From Flavobacteriales bacterium (GTDB lineage: Bacteria > Bacteroidota > Bacteroidia > UBA10329), in assembly GCA_018402015.1 (NCBI GenBank), contig JAGYJL010000005.1, positions 7,499 through 71,498 of the forward strand: a stretch of DNA of 64,000 nucleotides, given 5' to 3'. Shown here piece after piece: positions 5,133-25,743 of this stretch (its first letter is position 1; each line of letters opens with the position of its first letter). The notes under the pieces are model-generated. The model made no database searches. It was given only the letters and a program-made list of their open reading frames with translations, and was not told where the DNA came from. The position numbers and the translations under genes were made by a program.

Positions 5133-6304
5133 ATGCCCGAATCGCCAATTCGTAAATTGGTTCCGTATGCAACCGCTGCTAAAGCAAGAGGTATTAAAGT
5201 ATACCATCTCAATATCGGTCAGCCAGATATAGAAACCCCAGAAGTGGCGCTGACCGCTATAAGGAACATCGATCGCAAGGTTATTGAATACAGTAATTCT
5301 GAGGGTTATGCCACTTATCGAAGTGGTTTGGCCAAGTATTACCAAAGTGTGGGTGTTGATGTAGCGGATACCGACATCATGGTTACCACAGGTGGCTCAG
5401 AAGCATTGATCTTCGGCTTTATGACCTGCATGGATCCGGGAGATGAGATCATTATTCCCGAACCATTCTACGCCAATTACAATGGTTTTGCTACCATGGC
5501 GGGCCTTAATGTAAAGCCCATCACTGCTAAAATTGAAGATGGTTTTGCGCTGCCACCTATCTCTGAGTTCGAGCGAAGAATTACCGAGAATACTCATTGC
5601 CATTCGTCACTTATCTGTAACCCTGGAAACCCTACAGGAACATTATACGGAAAGGAAAGCCTTGAAGCCTTGGCCAAGTTGGTCAAGAAATACGACCTTT
5701 TTCTGTTTGCCGATGAGGTTTACCGCGAATTCTGTTACGATAGTGCCATTCCTTTTTCGTGTATGAATTTGGAAGGAATTGAGAATAACGTGGTAATGGT
5801 AGATAGCGTGAGTAAACGCTACAGTATGTGTGGTGCAAGAGTTGGTGCTTTGGTTTCAGAAACAAGGAAATGATGACCAACGCTCAAGTTTGCACAAGCC
5901 AGATTGAGTCCACCAACACTTGGGCAGATTGCTGGCGAGGCCGCATTAAACACACCTCAAGAGTATTTTGATCGGGTGAAGGAAGAATACATGCAGCGCA
6001 GAAATGTGCTGATCGATGGATTGAATGCCATTGATGGTGTGACCAGTCCAAAACCCGCTGGCGCATTTTACGCCATGGCACAATTGCCTGTAGAGAGTGG
6101 CGATGATTTCTGCCAATGGATGTTAGAGAATTCAGCTTCGAAGGAGAAACAGTGATGATGGCTCCCGGAAGCGGTTTTTATTCAACTCGTGCATACGGAG
6201 AGAAGCAAGTTCGAATTGCTTATGTACTTAAAGAAGAAGACCTTAAGAGATCGGTTAAGATCATTGAAGAAGGTTTGAAAGTCTACCCAAGGAGAACCAA
6301 CTAA
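5133..6304 (+). pseudogene. PLP-dependent aminotransferase class I/II (AspC-like), disrupted. There are two in-frame TGA TGA stops at 5871-5876 with compensating indels, and a frameshift near 6125.
   Basis: Aminotransferase motifs are present: PESPIRKL..., FLFADEVYREF, SVSKRYSMCGARVGALVS, then LSPPTLGQIAGEAAL, then ETVMMAPGSGFY. A +1-frame reading NKEMMTNA restores the expected sequence between the pieces. The true start is taken as MPESPIRK because the first 27 codons of the track ORF overlap the upstream terminator hairpin. Confidence 0.55.
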
Positions 6305-6350
6305 GGATAAAGCAAATACTTCTTACGAAGTGATCTTGAATGCATCGAGG

Positions 6351-7520
6351 TCAGATTGCCAGGAACCAACGATTTCTTCGATGGATTTTTCCAGCAATGA
6401 TCTGCTTTCTTAGTTCTGAAGAACCGGCCAGTTTGTCGAAGAAATCAGATTGGAAGAACTTGTTTTTTTCCGGGTAGTTCTCATAGGTTGATATGAGCCA
6501 ATCCAAGTTCAATTGCTTTAGGTTTCTGAGGCTGTCCAACGGCAACGAGGACAGGTCTATACCATTGCATTTCATCCCTTCAAATTTGGGATTTACAGCA
6601 ACTCCTTTAATGTCTTTGGGAGTGAAAGTGGTGTTTCCTTCAGGCATTTCAGGATAACCGAACTGCTGGAAAGGCTTATCCGTTCCACGGCCTTCGCTTA
6701 CAACCGTTCCTTCAAAAAAGCACAGACTCGGGTATAGATAAATAGCCTGCTGGTTAGGTAGATTGGGAGATGGGGCGATAGGCAATTCGTACGCATCATT
6801 TCGATCATAATCCATCATTTCAATGACGCTGAGTTCGCACTTTACACCATTTTTCAGCCAACCTTCCTCATTCACCATTTTGGCATATTCTCCAACCGTC
6901 ATTCCATGAACCACTGGAACCTCGTGCAAGCCTACGAACGATGAGAAGTCCTTCTGAAGAACCGGACCATCCACGTAATGCCCGTTCGGATTAGGGCGGT
7001 CGAGCACGATCAGTTGGATGCTATTCTCTGCACAGGCTTCCATCATGTAACTCATAGTACTGATGTAGGTGTAGAACCGTGCGCCTACATCTTGAATGTC
7101 AAAGATCACAACATCAAGACCTTGCAGTTGCTTGGCCGATGGCTTGTAATTGCTTCCATAAAGAGACATGATAGGCAGCCCTGTTTTCGGGTCTTTGCTA
7201 TCAGAGATCTTTGCGCCCGCACTTGCATTACCACGAAATCCGTGCTCAGGAGCAAATACGCATTTCACGTTTACGCCTAAACTCAAAAGTGTATCCACTA
7301 AATGGATCTTACCGACCACCGAGGTTTGATTGGCAACAATACCTACTGCTTTTCCTTCTATTCGAGGCAGGTATAAGTCTGTTCGCTGTGCTCCTAAAAC
7401 AAGCTGCTTCTGAATTTCTTCGATTGCTATGCCATCATTTGCTGGTGGTGGAGCAGGCACGGGTTGTCCGCAAGCAGAAAGCCACAGAACGGTAATGAGA
7501 TATTTGATAGTTTTAGCCAT
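6351..7520 (-). CDS. DUF1343 family exo-β-N-acetylmuramidase (NamZ/YbbC-like) lipoprotein
   Basis: Family-typical motifs: GIVANQTSV, VFAPEHGFRGN, DVVIFDIQDVGARFYTYISTM and RPNPNGHYVDGP. A lipoprotein-like N-terminus, MAKTIKYLITVLWLSACG, makes 7520 the likely start rather than 7556. Confidence 0.8.
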   Translation of the reverse strand: MAKTIKYLITVLWLSACGQPVPAPPPANDGIAIEEIQKQLVLGAQRTDLYLPRIEGKAVGIVANQTSVVGKIHLVDTLLSLGVNVKCVFAPEHGFRGNASAGAKISDSKDPKTGLPIMSLYGSNYKPSAKQLQGLDVVIFDIQDVGARFYTYISTMSYMMEACAENSIQLIVLDRPNPNGHYVDGPVLQKDFSSFVGLHEVPVVHGMTVGEYAKMVNEEGWLKNGVKCELSVIEMMDYDRNDAYELPIAPSPNLPNQQAIYLYPSLCFFEGTVVSEGRGTDKPFQQFGYPEMPEGNTTFTPKDIKGVAVNPKFEGMKCNGIDLSSLPLDSLRNLKQLNLDWLISTYENYPEKNKFFQSDFFDKLAGSSELRKQIIAGKIHRRNRWFLAI

Positions 7521-8797: not shown

Positions 8798-9600
8798 GCG
8801 TTCTGCCCGAACCAACGGTCAAGTAGATCGCGGAGCCGCTTTGGCGAAACCTCGTATTCCAATTCGCCTTCGTGCGTCACAGAAATATTCCCTGTTTGTT
8901 CCGAGACTACGATGGCTATGGCATCTGTGGTTTCCGATAATCCAACAGCAGCTCGGTGGCGCATGCCCAAATGAGCAGGAAACTCATCATCATCTGTTAC
9001 CGGAAGCACGCATCGCGCAGCTTTTATTCGATTGCCAGAAATGATCACGGCTCCATCGTGCAGCGGACTGTTCTTGTAGAAGATGGATTCAAGTATCTTG
9101 GCAGAAACCTCCGCATCAACCTTTTCGCCCGTATTGAGATAGAACTGCAGATTGCTTTCTCGACTGATGACAATAATGGCACCCGTTGCTTCCTGCGCCA
9201 TGTTCAAACATGCAGACACGATTGCGCTAATGTTCAACGTTTCAGCTGTACTGAAAGTCCGTTTCAGGTTCAGCCATTTTAGCGGTGAACTTTTTCCACT
9301 CATGAATCCGGTGGTTCCGATCAGTAGCAGAAAACGCCTCACTTCCTGCTGAAAAACAACGATCAACGCCAGAACTCCCACGCCAATGAACTGTCCGAGT
9401 ATCGAACCTAGTAATTGCATGTTAAGCGCTCTTACCAGCAACCAAAGCAAGTAAAGAGAAAGAATTCCTAGAAAGATATTGATGGCTGCTGTGCCACGAA
9501 CCAGATTGTAAAGTTGATAAAGCAATATGGCCACAATGAGGATGTCTAAGGCATCCAACCAGCGGAAGGTGATAAAACCTAAAACTACATCTGCCAACAT
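8794..9600 (-). CDS. cdaA: Diadenylate cyclase CdaA (c-di-AMP synthase, DisA_N domain)
   Basis: Three N-terminal transmembrane helices are followed by the DAC domain, with DGAVIISGNRIKAARCVLPV and GMRHRAAVGLSETTDA. Confidence 0.85.
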   Translation of the reverse strand: MLADVVLGFITFRWLDALDILIVAILLYQLYNLVRGTAAINIFLGILSLYLLWLLVRALNMQLLGSILGQFIGVGVLALIVVFQQEVRRFLLLIGTTGFMSGKSSPLKWLNLKRTFSTAETLNISAIVSACLNMAQEATGAIIVISRESNLQFYLNTGEKVDAEVSAKILESIFYKNSPLHDGAVIISGNRIKAARCVLPVTDDDEFPAHLGMRHRAAVGLSETTDAIAIVVSEQTGNISVTHEGELEYEVSPKRLRDLLDRWFGQNA

Positions 9601-9711
9601 GGGTATGCTTTCTGCTAAAACGCGAATTGCCCAAAATTAGCGTAATCAGCGGGACTCCTGTCAAAAGTCAGTTGACGACCGAGGCATTCAGTTTACTTCG
9701 TAGCACAGGAA

Positions 9712-22018: not shown

Positions 22019-22092
22019 GGCTATGTAGCTCAACTGGATAGAGCACCTCACTACGGATGAGGAGGTTCGGGGTTCGAATCCCTGCATGGTCA
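22019..22092 (+). tRNA. tRNA-Arg (anticodon ACG), 74 nt, with no encoded CCA
   Basis: Manual fold: acceptor GGCTATG/CATGGTC with two G·U pairs, D-arm GCTC-AACTGGATA-GAGC, anticodon stem CCTCA/TGAGG with loop CTACGGA giving ACG, variable loop AGGTT, and T-arm CGGGG-TTCGAAT-CCCTG. Confidence 0.85.
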
Positions 22093-22104
22093 CAGCAAAA
22101 GGAA

Positions 22105-22126
22105 GGAGGCAGCAGCCTCCTTTTTT
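22105..22126 (+). terminator. Rho-independent terminator after tRNA-Arg
   Basis: ggaggc-agca-gcctcc followed by T6. Confidence 0.55.
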
Positions 22127-22147
22127 ATTGCCCTGCTTTAGCCATAG

Positions 22148-22324
22148 CGGAAGTTTACCATCGGGCTTTTCGGTAGCCGAATCATCATGGAGAAATTGAA
22201 CTATGTCCATCAGGATCCGGTCGAATCGCATCTTGTGCAATTTCCTGAACAGTATATTTACAGTAGCGCAGTGAACTATGCCGATGGCATCGGTCTGCTG
22301 GAAGTTGAACGCATTGGATATTGA
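22148..22324 (+). mobile_element. 3' remnant (~58 codons) of an IS200/IS605-family (COG1943, REP-associated tyrosine transposase-like) transposase gene. The N-terminal catalytic part is absent.
   Basis: The open frame RKFTIGLFGSRIIMEKLNYVHQDPVESHLVQFPEQYIYSSAVNYADGIGLLEVERIGY* resembles the C-termini of Bacteroidetes COG1943 transposases (...IHxNPVRAGLVxxPEDYxYSSAxxY...GLLEVE...). Only 55 nt separate the upstream in-frame stop (22145-22147) from the tRNA. Confidence 0.5.
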
Positions 22325-22507: not shown

Positions 22508-24016
22508 ATGAGAGCCGTGAGAACCATAGCGGGATCAATTATTGCCTTGCTGATATTTACGAAATGTCAGGTTCAGGCGCAGCCTATCCGGTTTTCGGAA
22601 CATTACGACCTGAACAATGGAGCCGGAGGCTTCTTGTCCGGGATCCATCTGGGAAATGATACGCTGCTTGTGGTCGGCTATAGTCTCAACCTGTCAACCA
22701 ACAGTGGGTACGATGAGGGGCATCATATAGTGATCGGATCGGAAGGCGAACTTATACATGAACACCAGTTGAGTGCACAACAGATAAGTTACAAGACCAA
22801 CAACATCATCCGTTCATCCTATTCAGATGCCATATTTTCGGCAGGATCTCATTGCGATTACAATGTGCCAAGCCCCGGCTACTGCGACTTCTACTTCGCT
22901 CGACTGGATGAGACAGGCGACACCCTTTTCACCAAGGTGCTCGCAAGGCCCGATACGAGCGACCTACTTTTGAGCATGGTGGAGACCCGCCCCAACAAGA
23001 TAATGCTCATCGGTTGGACCTACGATGACACCACCGATACCAATGCGGACATACTGCTCATTACCGTAGACACCCTTGGCAACGAGGTGAACAGGGTTGT
23101 TTATGGGGGGGGTGGTACGGATTATATCCATTCGGGTATCGTTATAAATGAAGATGGCGAGGTGTTGATGACGGGATATACGGCAAGTTTTGCCGGGTCG
23201 GATAATGACACCTGGTTGATCAAGACCGACAGCATTGGAAATGTTATCTGGCATCAGACCTATAATCATCTTTCTTCTTCTGGTGGTGACGCGGCATCAA
23301 GTGTAAGCAGGTCAAATGATGGAAACTTTTTTTTGGCAGGAGGAGCTGAGAATTCTTCAAGTGGAAATTCCGATGGTGTTCTTATGAAGATAACACCGGA
23401 TGGAGATCCGGTTTGGACAAAAAAGTACATCCCCAACAGTGGGTCGCAGAGTTTTTGGTCTGTCCAAGTTCTTCCCAACGGGGATATTGTGGCTGTCGGT
23501 CAAACAACTAATACTGATGACGGCAGTCAGGCCGGATGGTTGGTGAAAACCGATGCCAATGGTGACACCCTTTGGACACGCACGTACAACCCTTCTGATG
23601 CCACAGACCTGCTACGCAATATGTTGGTTATGCCCAACGGGGATATTGTGATGGTCGGTTTTGGCCGCGGAGAGAACTCCACCACACAGGATGGCTGGAT
23701 ATTGCGGGTAGATAGCATGGGGTGCTTGGTGGAGGGATGCTTTTCCGTAGGGATTGACGATAGAACGATTGACGATGAACGATTTGCGATTTTTCCAAAT
23801 CCTGCGGAGAACATTTTGAACATCGTTTCAGAACAAGCAATGGAAGAGGTCAGATTGTATGATATGCAAGGCCGCACGGTAAGTTCATTCATTTTGTTGC
23901 GTCAGCAAACCTTGGAGCTTGACGTTTCCGGGCTGAACGCAGGTCTGTTCATTCTGGAGGTGCTTGACACAGAGGGCATCCGCAATGTGAGAAAGGTTAT
24001 TGTTGAAAGGCCATGA
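22508..24016 (+). CDS. Secreted β-propeller-repeat protein with a T9SS type-A C-terminal sorting domain
   Basis: The signal peptide is MRAVRTIAGSIIALLIFTKCQVQA. Repeated DGWLVKTDxxGDTLWT / NGDIVxVG motifs are present. The C-terminus (FAIFPNPAENILNIV...LYDMQGRTVSS...LDVSGLNAGLFILEV) is a Por-secretion CTD. An internal G8 tract lies at 23105-23112. Confidence 0.75.
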   Translation: MRAVRTIAGSIIALLIFTKCQVQAQPIRFSEHYDLNNGAGGFLSGIHLGNDTLLVVGYSLNLSTNSGYDEGHHIVIGSEGELIHEHQLSAQQISYKTNNIIRSSYSDAIFSAGSHCDYNVPSPGYCDFYFARLDETGDTLFTKVLARPDTSDLLLSMVETRPNKIMLIGWTYDDTTDTNADILLITVDTLGNEVNRVVYGGGGTDYIHSGIVINEDGEVLMTGYTASFAGSDNDTWLIKTDSIGNVIWHQTYNHLSSSGGDAASSVSRSNDGNFFLAGGAENSSSGNSDGVLMKITPDGDPVWTKKYIPNSGSQSFWSVQVLPNGDIVAVGQTTNTDDGSQAGWLVKTDANGDTLWTRTYNPSDATDLLRNMLVMPNGDIVMVGFGRGENSTTQDGWILRVDSMGCLVEGCFSVGIDDRTIDDERFAIFPNPAENILNIVSEQAMEEVRLYDMQGRTVSSFILLRQQTLELDVSGLNAGLFILEVLDTEGIRNVRKVIVERP

Positions 24017-24143
24017 GGATTCTGCTGTCAATACAGGTGCACTTATCATTACGCTTGAGGGCGACAGCCAAGACCTTGATAGTGAGACGCTGATGGTGCA
24101 GTAACCCCAACAAGGTCGTGTACCTATTGTAAAAACAACAGAA

Positions 24144-24180
24144 AGCGGAGTTAGGCCCTATGCCTAACTCCGCTTTCTGT
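24144..24180. terminator. Bidirectional hairpin terminator between the convergent 22508..24016 and 24198..25163 genes
   Basis: A perfect 13-bp stem agcggagttaggc / gcctaactccgct with loop cctat. Confidence 0.55.
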
Positions 24181-24197
24181 ATTACAGACACGTGGTC

Positions 24198-25163
24198 TTA
24201 CGCGGGGGTGATCACCTCCATGTTGTAGCTTCCAGCTATGGCCGGGTCGGTGTTGGTCACGTTGAAGAAACTGCTTGTGGGGTTGCTGAAATCGCTGGCC
24301 TTTCCTTCAATTACAGCTCCGGGGGCAAGCGTAAGCCCATCCACCCCGCAGGCCAAGTTGGCGTCTGTGCTCTCGCAGAAGGTCAATGGCACCGTTCCAG
24401 TGTTGGTAATGATGATGGTGGCATTGGCCGCCATTCCCTGTAGAATATTGACCGTGGATAATGGTTCCACCGTACCGCTGTATTCCTCTTCGATAGGCGG
24501 TTTGCTGGCGTGCTGTTGCAGCAGGCTCACTTCAAAGTAGTTGAAAATGGTGTCGGGCGTCAGTCCGAACTTGTCCATGAGCGAACCGAGGTTACGATAC
24601 ATCATTACAGCAATGTCTTTTCGGGCGGCCTCCAGGTCGGTGCTGGCCTGTGCGCTGGTCTGTTCGCGTGCCTGCTGGGCATCGCGTGCGGCCTTGATGG
24701 TGGTGTAGAACCCATCCACCGTACCTTTGAGTGCGGCCAGTGGGGCATAAGAACCTAACGAGTCGCCAAGGGTCTTAACAGCGGCAATGCGCTCATCCTT
24801 TGTGCCTTGCTGTAGCGGTTCGCGGCCGCTTGGCAGCAAGGTGGTATGTTCTACCGTTCCTTTATCGTACTGCACCATAATGTTGGTGTCCCACTGCCGG
24901 GCCAATGTGGCCGAAAGACTGTCTAGCATGGCATCTACCGTTTGCGTAGCGCCTTTGTAAAAGGCCTGTTCGCTTTTCCAGTTGCTATACCGTTGCAAAT
25001 AAAGATCGTGCACCGGAGTGGTGCGGTTAAGTAAGATGAGAATGTCGGGGTCGGCCTGTTGCGCCAGCAGTTTGGCGTAGTGGTCGTTGGTCACTGTCAG
25101 CATCAGTCGGTAAGAACCAACCGTTGCATTGTCGAACTGATTTTCAAGATAATGCCATTCCAT
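24198..25163 (-). CDS. Hypothetical cytoplasmic protein (321 aa) with no recognisable domain. Its composition is atypical, about 56% GC in a sampled 100 nt against about 42% for housekeeping genes here.
   Basis: Long clean ORF with no signal peptide. GC enrichment is judged by eye from a manual count of 100 nt. It lies inside the tRNA-flanked islet. Confidence 0.55.
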   Translation of the reverse strand: MEWHYLENQFDNATVGSYRLMLTVTNDHYAKLLAQQADPDILILLNRTTPVHDLYLQRYSNWKSEQAFYKGATQTVDAMLDSLSATLARQWDTNIMVQYDKGTVEHTTLLPSGREPLQQGTKDERIAAVKTLGDSLGSYAPLAALKGTVDGFYTTIKAARDAQQAREQTSAQASTDLEAARKDIAVMMYRNLGSLMDKFGLTPDTIFNYFEVSLLQQHASKPPIEEEYSGTVEPLSTVNILQGMAANATIIITNTGTVPLTFCESTDANLACGVDGLTLAPGAVIEGKASDFSNPTSSFFNVTNTDPAIAGSYNMEVITPA

Positions 25164-25295
25164 GATCGGTATTTTTAAAGGTTATACCAGCATTAACTGA
25201 GGCCACGATTGGTTTATTTTTTGGCATATTCTGCTTTAACATTTCTTCACAATTGTGCACTACAACCGTGGCGCATGGATGCCCGACAACGGAAT

Positions 25296-25589
25296 GGCAC
25301 GCCACAGTTGTTCGGTGCGATCGGCAGCGTAGAGAATGCCACGCCACAGTTGTTCGGTGCGATCGGGAGCGTAGGGAACGGCACGCTACAGATGTTCGGT
25401 CTGATCGGGAGCGTACCGAATGCCACGCCACAGATGTTCGGTGCGATCGGGAGCGTAGGGAATGGCACGGCACAACTGTTTGGTACGATCAGGAGCGTAC
25501 CGAATGGCACGCCACAGTTGTTCGGTGCGATCGGGAGCGTAGAGAATGGCACGGCACAACTGTTTGGTGCGATCGGGAGCGTACAGAAT
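25296..25589. repeat. Tandem minisatellite: 7 copies of a 42-bp unit (consensus ggcacgccacagttgttcggtgcgatcgggagcgtagagaat), plus a degenerate 8th copy upstream at about 25263-25295
   Basis: Units start at 25296, 25338, 25380, 25422, 25464, 25506 and 25548, with 3-8 substitutions per unit. The period is 3×14, and 4 of 6 frames are open across the array (track ORFs 25209-25607+, 25253-25603+, 25247-25624- and 25144-25473-). Confidence 0.9.
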
Positions 25590-25647
25590 CCGACTACACT
25601 TAGTTGAAATTGCTTCACCACCAACTGTGCAGAAGTGGCGGTGCGGT

Positions 25648-25693
25648 GGTTCGGGGTTCGAATCCCTGCATGGTCACAGCAAAAGGAAGGAGG
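25648..25693 (+). repeat. Direct repeat of the 3' ~30 nt of tRNA-Arg plus its downstream terminator stem (att-like duplication); identical to 22064-22109
   Basis: ggttcggggttcgaatccctgcatggtcacagcaaaaggaaggagg occurs at both places. Upstream of the copy the sequence (ggcggtgcggt) diverges from the tRNA body. Confidence 0.8.
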
Positions 25694-25710
25694 TTTAGCC
25701 TCCTTTTTTT
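25689..25710 (+). terminator. Hairpin plus T-tract following the partial tRNA copy
   Basis: ggagg-tttag-cctcc followed by T7. Confidence 0.5.
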
Positions 25711-25743
25711 ATTCCCACCAATCAAATAACCACTTTATTACAT

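Follow-up and report, generated by a model that had tools for sequence, protein, structure and literature searches.

A widespread 41–42-bp tandem array upstream of an uncharacterised gene family, first seen in a Flavobacteriales genome

Type III toxin–antitoxin systems, centromeres and iterons have each turned out to be self-contained machines. The sopC centromere of the F plasmid is composed of 12 tandem 43-bp units, each carrying an inverted repeat to which SopB binds. Iterons are shorter (17–22 bp, with a spacing of about 22 bp) and have a basic winged-helix Rep protein as their partner; iteron plasmids associate direct repeats with an operator, and their rep promoter is autoregulated. Contingency tracts are made of 1–7-bp units that change at high frequency. 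For type III systems, units of 31–62 nt (PMC3401426) and 1.9–5.6 copies have been published. Here, we report the analysis of a tandem array of 42-bp units situated upstream of a gene coding for a 321-aa protein of an uncharacterised family. The array was found in a stretch of 64,000 nt from a Flavobacteriales bacterium (assembly GCA_018402015.1, contig JAGYJL010000005.1, positions 7,499–71,498), which is called the window below; coordinates given without a locus name refer to it, and homologous loci elsewhere are designated by L numbers.

The locus is one instance of a widespread, unannotated module consisting of two parts, the array and the gene, and the 41–42-bp period is its only invariant non-coding property. 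This module shares the general design of type III systems, iteron/rep loci and sopC centromeres, but lacks what defines each of them. As in ToxIN, CptIN, TenpIN and AbiF with RCd22, a tandem array of short units directly precedes one stand-alone gene, the unit sequence is specific to a family or a locus, and several copies can be present in one genome. However, the gene codes for an acidic protein of about 320 aa composed of a helical bundle and a beta-sandwich, whereas the type III toxin is a ToxN-like endoribonuclease of about 170 aa. The arrays described here also have up to about 10 copies, there is generally no terminator, the gene probably has its own promoter, one array is inverted, and the module is not found on plasmids or phages. 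The resemblance to sopC concerns the unit length (41–42 against 43 bp), the head-to-tail arrangement and, in about a third of the arrays, an inverted repeat that is best conserved within the unit; in contrast to sopC, the module is chromosomal, has no ParA/ParB-type genes and adjoins a gene whose product has no DNA-binding fold. Iteron-like features are the direct repeats upstream of a gene, the palindrome resembling the unit core near the presumed promoter of the window, and the divergence of repeats between paralogues, but the units are 41–42 bp long without a 21-bp half-period and the protein is not Rep-like. Like a contingency tract, the array precedes a gene that may encode a surface-type protein and differs in copy number between related strains; unlike one, it is built of 41–42-bp units, keeps its period across phyla and is identical within nine near-identical pairs of loci. 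Finally, CRISPR repeats can have the same length, and a palindrome is seen in some of the units, but the units abut head to tail without spacers, and neither cas genes nor any other conserved neighbours accompany them.

Distribution and turnover of the arrays

The window contains a single strong tandem array, detected at 25,292–25,589 by Tandem Repeats Finder (TRF; period 42, 7.1 copies, 84% matches, 0 indels, score 414), while the next-best repeat scores 65. A direct-repeat search and alignment of the units in register gave seven full 42-bp copies at 25,292–25,585, followed by 4 bp up to 25,589; the array is assigned to no strand, and its consensus on the + strand is GAATGGCACGCCACAGTTGTTCGGTGCGATCGGGAGCGTAGA. 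The 42 bp preceding the full units (25,250–25,291) match the consensus at only about 40% by manual count and represent one degenerate unit, so that the count of about 7.5 copies in the initial annotation was a fair one. The array lies 128–426 bp upstream of the ATG (25,163) of the minus-strand open reading frame (ORF) at 24,198–25,163. Each unit carries a near-palindromic core, CACA-NN-TGT, in which the central dinucleotide is GT, GA or AC.

Homologous loci were obtained by exact look-up, by scanning 185,579 species genomes, which gave 39 loci, and by scanning metagenomes of the Joint Genome Institute, which gave 45, and TRF was applied to 1 kb upstream of each family gene. A tandem array was present upstream of the gene in 36 of 41 distinct genome loci, with a period of 41 or 42 bp and, in one case, 44 bp. 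These arrays have 1.9–8.5 copies and end about 45–400 bp before the ATG (700 bp in L035). The metagenome loci gave a similar picture: an array precedes the gene in 29 of the 32 having at least 350 bp of upstream sequence, and the copy number in both sets together ranges from 1.9 to 9.8. The earlier proposal of an upstream element associated with the 321-aa gene is thus borne out by some 65 of 73 loci distributed over three phyla, Bacteroidota, Ignavibacteria and Verrucomicrobiota. Degenerate periodicity persists in L003, L010 and L041 at lags of 84, 84 and 42, respectively, and TRF also reports for L003 a period of 126, equal to three diverged units; L016 and L022 are the only two genome loci showing no upstream periodicity. 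In 35 control regions from other parts of the loci, the match stayed below 0.6 at every lag. The unit sequences themselves are unrelated between most loci, with a GC content from 26 to 74%, and the 41-bp period occurs in thirteen distinct arrays; conservation is limited to the period and the position. The array is therefore a conserved non-coding part of the locus of this gene and not a random minisatellite.

No other gene accompanies the pair. In an all-against-all clustering of the ORFs within about 5 kb, at most four loci share any gene, apart from the family gene and an antisense shadow ORF, and the module thus consists of the array and the gene with no further conserved partner. Neither Rfam, Pfam and PADLOC nor the searchable literature on type III families and 41/42-bp repeats contains a description of it.

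Additional 42-bp arrays are present at contig ends in L022 (11,042–11,232, 4.5 copies) and L038 (11,640–11,813, 4.2 copies), 5–6 kb from the family gene, where another family member may lie past the assembly break. Many short contigs carrying a family gene stop about 50–190 bp ahead of the ATG, the array being the probable cause of the assembly break. In L010, the family gene (6001–6981) is broken into two ORFs and is likely a pseudogene, and the upstream region keeps a degenerate 84-bp (2 × 42) periodicity.

In nine cases, family genes that are 99.3–100% identical occur in two assemblies derived from different samples or records, though some of these may represent the same populations. The upstream regions of the nine pairs differ by no more than one mismatch, without gaps, and their copy numbers are equal, as far as can be seen in short-read assemblies, which cannot reveal heterogeneity within a population. 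At slightly greater divergence, the copy number changes by one or two units: in L018 and L046, the gene starts are identical and the upstream regions are separated by 27 mismatches and 82 gap columns, equivalent to two 41-bp units, and L087 and L098 differ by one unit. The initial annotation had considered a copy-number switch; a fast one finds no support in the nine unchanged pairs, and it is at the slightly greater divergence that copy number and unit sequence vary.

Beyond the near-identical pairs, the arrays change faster than the gene. In L011/L062, the genes are 96% identical and collinear homology extends from −82 to +990, i.e. about 40 bp past the stop codon. The array of L062 has the opposite orientation, its units being the reverse complement of those in L011, as indicated by minus-strand blastn matches of 75–80% and by a unit scan (best 20-nt window 19/20). 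By hand alignment, about 95% identity between the two is retained in a 21-nt core, CAAAACACCTGTyCCGTGCCA, with divergence in the other half of the unit. In L087/L088, the genes are 95% identical and the unit consensus only 63%, with 18 of 21 positions preserved in a core of about 20 nt, again aligned by hand. Between the paralogues L012 and L014, homology begins at −85 and ends at the stop codon; the units of the two arrays have no sequence in common but keep the same 42-bp phase. The array of L060 is a mixture of unit types. In the subfamily of the window (L003, L006, L055 and L057; 63–72% protein identity), manual comparison of the consensus units revealed a shared CACA-NN-TGTG core and a GATCGC element. 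Among pairs of related units (at least 16/20), 29 are in the same orientation and 7 in the reverse one, suggesting that inversion of an array is rare but tolerated. Overall, copy number drifts and the unit sequences diverge at a rate equal to the neutral one or higher; the sequence turnover of the arrays is fast, and one array is clearly inverted.

The protein family

Twenty-eight close homologues of the 321-aa protein were found, none of them named and none with a Pfam domain. A profile search against 1.84 billion cluster representatives recovered 1522 members at E ≤ 1e-3 and 577 at E ≤ 1e-30; these representatives stand for clusters at 50% identity, and 1522 is a lower bound on the size of the family. 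Searches of the 321-aa protein against Pfam, NCBIfam, PADLOC, PHROG and PDB profiles gave no match. All 39 genome matches are metagenome-assembled genomes, and no cultured isolate was found among the 185,579 species representatives. The carriers belong to Flavobacteriales, Chitinophagales, Sphingobacteriales, Bacteroidales, Ignavibacteria and the verrucomicrobial Chthoniobacter group. The family is chromosomal: no match was obtained in 72,556 plasmids, 50,697 phages and IMG/VR.

Two confident AlphaFold2 models were obtained, one of the whole protein (predicted local distance difference test score 90.3) and one of residues 1–215 (93.8). Residues 9–208 are modelled as an elongated helical bundle made mainly of two helices of about 60 residues, and residues 224–319 as an eight-strand beta-sandwich with two conserved Cys. 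Foldseek matches with E values of about 1e-3 to 1e-4 were confined to the C-terminal domain and comprised Ena pilins, PirA, cupins and small phage proteins. The best Foldseek match of the N-terminal domain had E = 0.15, the matches being generic long helical bundles such as the trypanosome haptoglobin–haemoglobin receptor and the McpS sensor domain. No nuclease-like or ToxN-like fold was retrieved with either the whole model or the N-terminal domain model. The family is acidic, with isoelectric points (pI) of 4.4–4.9; the value is 4.66 for the window protein, and about 4.05 was computed for the C-terminal domain. Nearly all members carry the motif W-H-Y-x-x-N-Q-F-(D/E)-N-x-T within a few residues of the initial Met. 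The C-terminal domain is replaceable, since it is missing in Chthoniobacter-type members and PKD-like in P0055. No signal peptide was obvious by eye in the 321-aa protein, for which no predictor was used. The protein looks unlike a nuclease or a nucleic-acid binder and more like a structural or surface-type protein.

Possible modes of action of the array

Among the ideas put forward in the initial annotation, the promoter element is the nearest to the evidence, while those of a peptide and of an attachment (att) site scar are wrong. Our own preference, a tentative one to which we would give somewhat less than an even chance, is for an array that acts in cis as non-coding DNA with phased units, ahead of the promoter of the gene itself. 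Such an array would work as double-stranded DNA, presenting repeated sites four helical turns apart on the same face of the helix, and, being placed just upstream of the promoter, it would set whether and how strongly the gene is expressed. Its units would turn over, different ones being amplified and homogenised in each lineage, with a drift of one or two copies and a fixed period. We infer the action on DNA, the control of the promoter and the identity of the binder alike.

Several observations are consistent with this phased DNA array. The 42-bp units sum to 1433–1438 degrees of twist, or about 4.0 turns, with two dinucleotide twist tables. Boxes of the Bacteroidetes-type −7 form TAnnTTTG stand between array and ATG in L015 and L028, at −67/−69, and further ones at about −35 to −60 in L022, L065, L072, L074 and L077, where the leaders were read by eye. 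Only one of the scanned loci has a TAnnTTTG box upstream that reads into the array, and canonical Bacteroidetes or sigma-70 promoters reading into the arrays were not found in general. In the window, the minus-strand spacer and leader between array and ATG (25,164–25,291, 128 bp) would bear the promoter, judging from its sequence motifs. It contains a TGTTAAAG box at 25,234–25,241, i.e. at −78 from the ATG, and a TGTTAAA(A)TT box occupies a fixed position at −77/−78 in the window, L002 and L006 (manual count on the spacers). Where a long inverted repeat is present in the units, it is their best-conserved part. The inversion of the array in L011/L062 beside genes 96% identical favours orientation independence. 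The association of array and gene, the lack of another conserved gene and the common phase of the unrelated L012 and L014 arrays are in keeping with this view as well, and the acidic protein, without a nuclease-like or ToxN-like match, would be a poor partner for RNA.

Other observations weigh against a phased cis-acting array. The sole locus-specific protein is acidic and without a recognisable DNA-binding fold. Phasing alone would also allow periods of 21, 31–32 or 52–53 bp; only 41–44 bp are seen, which implies a more specific ruler. The units are no more bent than shuffled units (z about 0), and inverted repeats are not universal: arms reaching 6 bp or more are seen in 8 of 27 arrays, some 30%, compared with about 10% of shuffled sequences. 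The promoter positions are consensus matches and not mapped start sites, and a 45-nt block directly upstream of the arrays of L040 and L045 could be a promoter reading into the array. Furthermore, since related units are mostly co-oriented (29 against 7), orientation independence rests on one clear case.

Other regularities were sought in the units. A universal palindrome was rejected in view of the proportion of arrays with arms of at least 6 bp, and a 21-bp half-unit was rejected as there is no excess identity at a shift of 21. Inverted unit copies flanking the arrays, as expected of an invertible segment, scored like shuffled controls, the window included, so that the impression gained by eye was not significant. 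No signal of twist compensation was seen in 41-bp units.

The same layout of a tandem array followed by a single stand-alone gene would also fit a type III-like arrangement in which the array is transcribed and cut into 41–42-nt RNAs, each of which would bind one copy of the protein encoded downstream so as to neutralise or regulate it; the constant length of the units would then reflect the geometry of an RNA–protein complex. We consider this possible but rather unlikely. The unit length falls inside the published range, a genome frequently carries two copies whose arrays are unrelated, a conserved partner gene is lacking, and strict length combined with free sequence fits a structural constraint of a ribonucleoprotein. 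The block directly upstream of the arrays shared by the paralogues L040 and L045 and the hairpin, without a T-run, between array and gene in the subfamily L011–L014, L018 and L046 point the same way, and toxins other than RNases that have RNA antitoxins are known (AvcD, AbiF–RCd22). The repeats do lie upstream of the gene (36/41 and 29/32 loci), but the short palindromic terminator that separates repeats and toxin gene in type III systems (PMC3401426) is generally missing: hairpins with a T-run between array and gene number 3 in 36 loci against 2 in 36 on the other strand, with none in the window. The acidic protein of about 320 aa has a fold unlike ToxN, CptN, TenpN and HEPN and no match in PADLOC, and no known toxin fold (ToxN/AbiQ/CptN/TenpN) is present. 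The promoter-like boxes stand between array and gene. Neither a strand bias nor a general RNA structure emerged when unit trimers were folded on both strands (14 of 32 arrays favour the gene strand; mean z −0.75 and −1.1), the G–U asymmetry within arrays was not significant (27 against 16), and repeats within an array are only 72–98% identical. Nor is cognate pairing in a fixed orientation observed, as the L062 array is inverted beside a 96%-identical gene and the units of L087 and L088 are only 63% identical. Finally, no member is found on plasmids, phages or viral contigs. A second arrangement with a dedicated partner, of the iteron or centromere kind, would have the gene product, alone or oligomerised, recognise a core of about 20 bp in each unit, the cores of paralogues diversifying against cross-talk. 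It would account for the locus-specific unit sequences beside the only locus-specific protein, for the retention of a core of about 20 nt by near-identical genes while the rest of the unit changes (L011/L062, L087/L088), for the unrelated units of paralogues and, in the window, for the perfect palindrome CACAATTGTG at 25,248–25,257, which resembles the unit core and lies beside the presumed promoter. Yet the protein is acidic (pI about 4.05 in its C-terminal domain) and has no DNA-binding fold, there is no Rep, ParA or ParB partner gene, inverted partial units do not generally flank the arrays, and the family, being chromosomal, is missing from the plasmid collection; we regard such self-recognition as improbable.

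Evolution of the units at or above the neutral rate and drift in copy number would be expected of a functionless variable-number tandem repeat lying beside the gene by chance, but this is contradicted by the comparative data and appears very improbable: arrays of the same period occupy the same place in about 65 of 73 loci of three phyla, even without shared unit sequence, degenerate arrays have kept their period without indels, and the 35 control regions have no comparable periodicity. The open frames of the array had suggested that it is translated into a repetitive peptide, either (NGTPQLFGAIGSVx)n, which might be a TigB-like precursor of a ribosomally synthesised and post-translationally modified peptide (RiPP), or (PIAPNNCGVPF...)n. 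Three frames are in fact fully open across the window array and two more have a single stop each, rather than four of six being stop-free; the + frame does read NGTPQLFGAIGSVE and variants, and the minus-frame ORF (25,247–25,624) starts with TTG and not with an ATG at 25,624. The + frame at 25,209–25,607 scores 31 bits (E = 1.9e-7) against NCBIfam RiPP_TigB, but the family cut-off is 70 bits, and we take it that the match reflects the IGSV motif within the repeat, a non-coding minisatellite mimicking a repeat RiPP precursor. A 42-nt unit is stop-free in a given frame about half the time by chance, (61/64)^14 = 0.51. The synonymous change CAG TTG TTC to CAA CTG TTT exists, but as a single haplotype in two units (5 and 7) and not as several independent changes, and the variation of the core dinucleotide (GT, GA, AC) between units explains such changes without any reading frame. 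The coding interpretation is refuted by the lack of any homologue of the window peptide among 5.8 billion proteins, by the 41-bp period of thirteen distinct homologous arrays and by five homologous arrays closed in all six frames, and retains next to no probability. ORFs running through in-frame minisatellites are in general weak evidence of coding. The chance that successive integrations at the tRNA-Arg att site left the array behind as a scar is equally negligible. The window array does lie 52 bp from a duplicated 3' end of tRNA-Arg, but none of 39 other loci has a tRNA beside the array (a single tRNA, in L036, is 6 kb away), which refutes the scarring proposed earlier. A permissive Rfam scan found nothing tRNA-like inside the array, contrary to the T-arm similarity noted initially, and detected only the separate 3' fragment at 25,637–25,675; no curated Rfam covariance model matched within the array, either at the gathering threshold or at E ≤ 10. 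The array travels with the gene and not with the tRNA.

Strict repeat length together with free sequence points to a physical constraint, which could be four turns of DNA or the unit size of a protein–nucleic acid complex. It is conceivable, though we think it doubtful, that a repeated element of fixed length (41–42 nt or bp) is read by, or assembled with, an elongated helical-bundle protein bearing a variable Ig-like or jelly-roll head, and that the two form a new two-component class. An RNA-antitoxin or defence module, or a protein assembly scaffolded by nucleic acid, would be examples. Such a class would be widespread in Bacteroidota, Ignavibacteria and Verrucomicrobiota, so far in uncultured genomes only. 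A family with at least 1522 cluster representatives has no entry in Pfam, NCBIfam, PADLOC or PHROGs, and its non-coding partner array escapes gene-centred annotation. A 41–42-bp array followed by the N-terminal motif W-H-Y-x-x-N-Q-F provides a signature for its detection.

Leader motifs and genomic surroundings

The leaders of the family genes contain further motifs. A TTAAAA/ACTAAAA motif lies at about −17 in roughly half of 72 leaders, and many Bacteroidota members have a position-specific ACTAAAA/TTAAAAC motif there (positions −18 to −11); in the window, CTTTAAAAAT lies 10–19 nt before the ATG. The members from Verrucomicrobiota and Ignavibacteria have instead a Shine–Dalgarno sequence of the GGAGG type, a few nucleotides nearer the ATG. 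A palindrome with 10-bp arms, CAGACCGTAA-ATAGG-TTACGGTCTG, is found between array and gene in L013 (5895–5913), L018 (5912–5930) and L046 (2176–2194), about 20 nt before a TTGGTTTG box, with an ACGT variant in L011, L012 and L014; its reverse-complement form occurs upstream of the array in L026 (5356–5374). This palindrome could be an operator or a terminator. The 45-nt block of the Chthoniobacter paralogues L040 (5470–5515) and L045 (5510–5555), TGGC..TTTTTGCNCATTTCTCTGTCCGGANGGTGGATAAATA, is near-identical in the two loci, whose arrays are otherwise different; it ends about 10–15 nt before the arrays, and a sigma-70 consensus scan called no promoter there.

In the window, the module is part of a 3.58-kb islet bracketed by repeats of tRNA-Arg sequence. 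The tRNA search placed tRNA-Arg(ACG) at 22,019–22,093, and a direct + strand copy of its 3' part (about 36 nt) with the downstream hairpin lies at 25,642–25,716; compared with 22,058–22,133, the duplicate repeats 52 nt at 96% identity and then 20 nt at 85%. The copy is located 52 bp beyond the array, from which it is separate, and forms the right boundary of the islet. Between the repeats are a transposase remnant, a gene for a 502-aa protein sorted by the type IX secretion system (T9SS), the 321-aa gene and the array. The remnant, at 22,187–22,324, corresponds to the 45 C-terminal residues of a REP-associated (Y1/IS200-like) tyrosine transposase, identified by a weak NCBIfam match. No integrase gene is present within the 3.58 kb, and the whole looks like a decayed or trans-mobilised integrative islet. 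The 502-aa beta-propeller protein is encoded at 22,508–24,016, convergently with the 321-aa gene, and a perfect 19-bp inverted repeat with a 5-nt loop between the two genes (24,138–24,180) is, from its sequence, probably their shared terminator.

The block formed by the array, the gene and a T9SS protein of about 504 aa recurs without a tRNA in L051, whose family protein is 67% identical; there, the Y1_Tnp gene (9085–9639) is intact, unlike the remnant of the window. In 11 of about 40 Bacteroidota loci (window, L002, L003, L006, L014, L018, L023, L035, L037, L051 and L053), the gene next downstream codes for a protein with a C-terminal T9SS sorting domain. These neighbours are convergent or co-directional with the family gene and are not homologous to each other outside the sorting tail; their frequency gives the impression of exceeding what chance would yield. 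The T9SS tails, MORN-variant lipoproteins and a 1629-aa adhesin-like protein encoded in the window point to a Bacteroidota genome.

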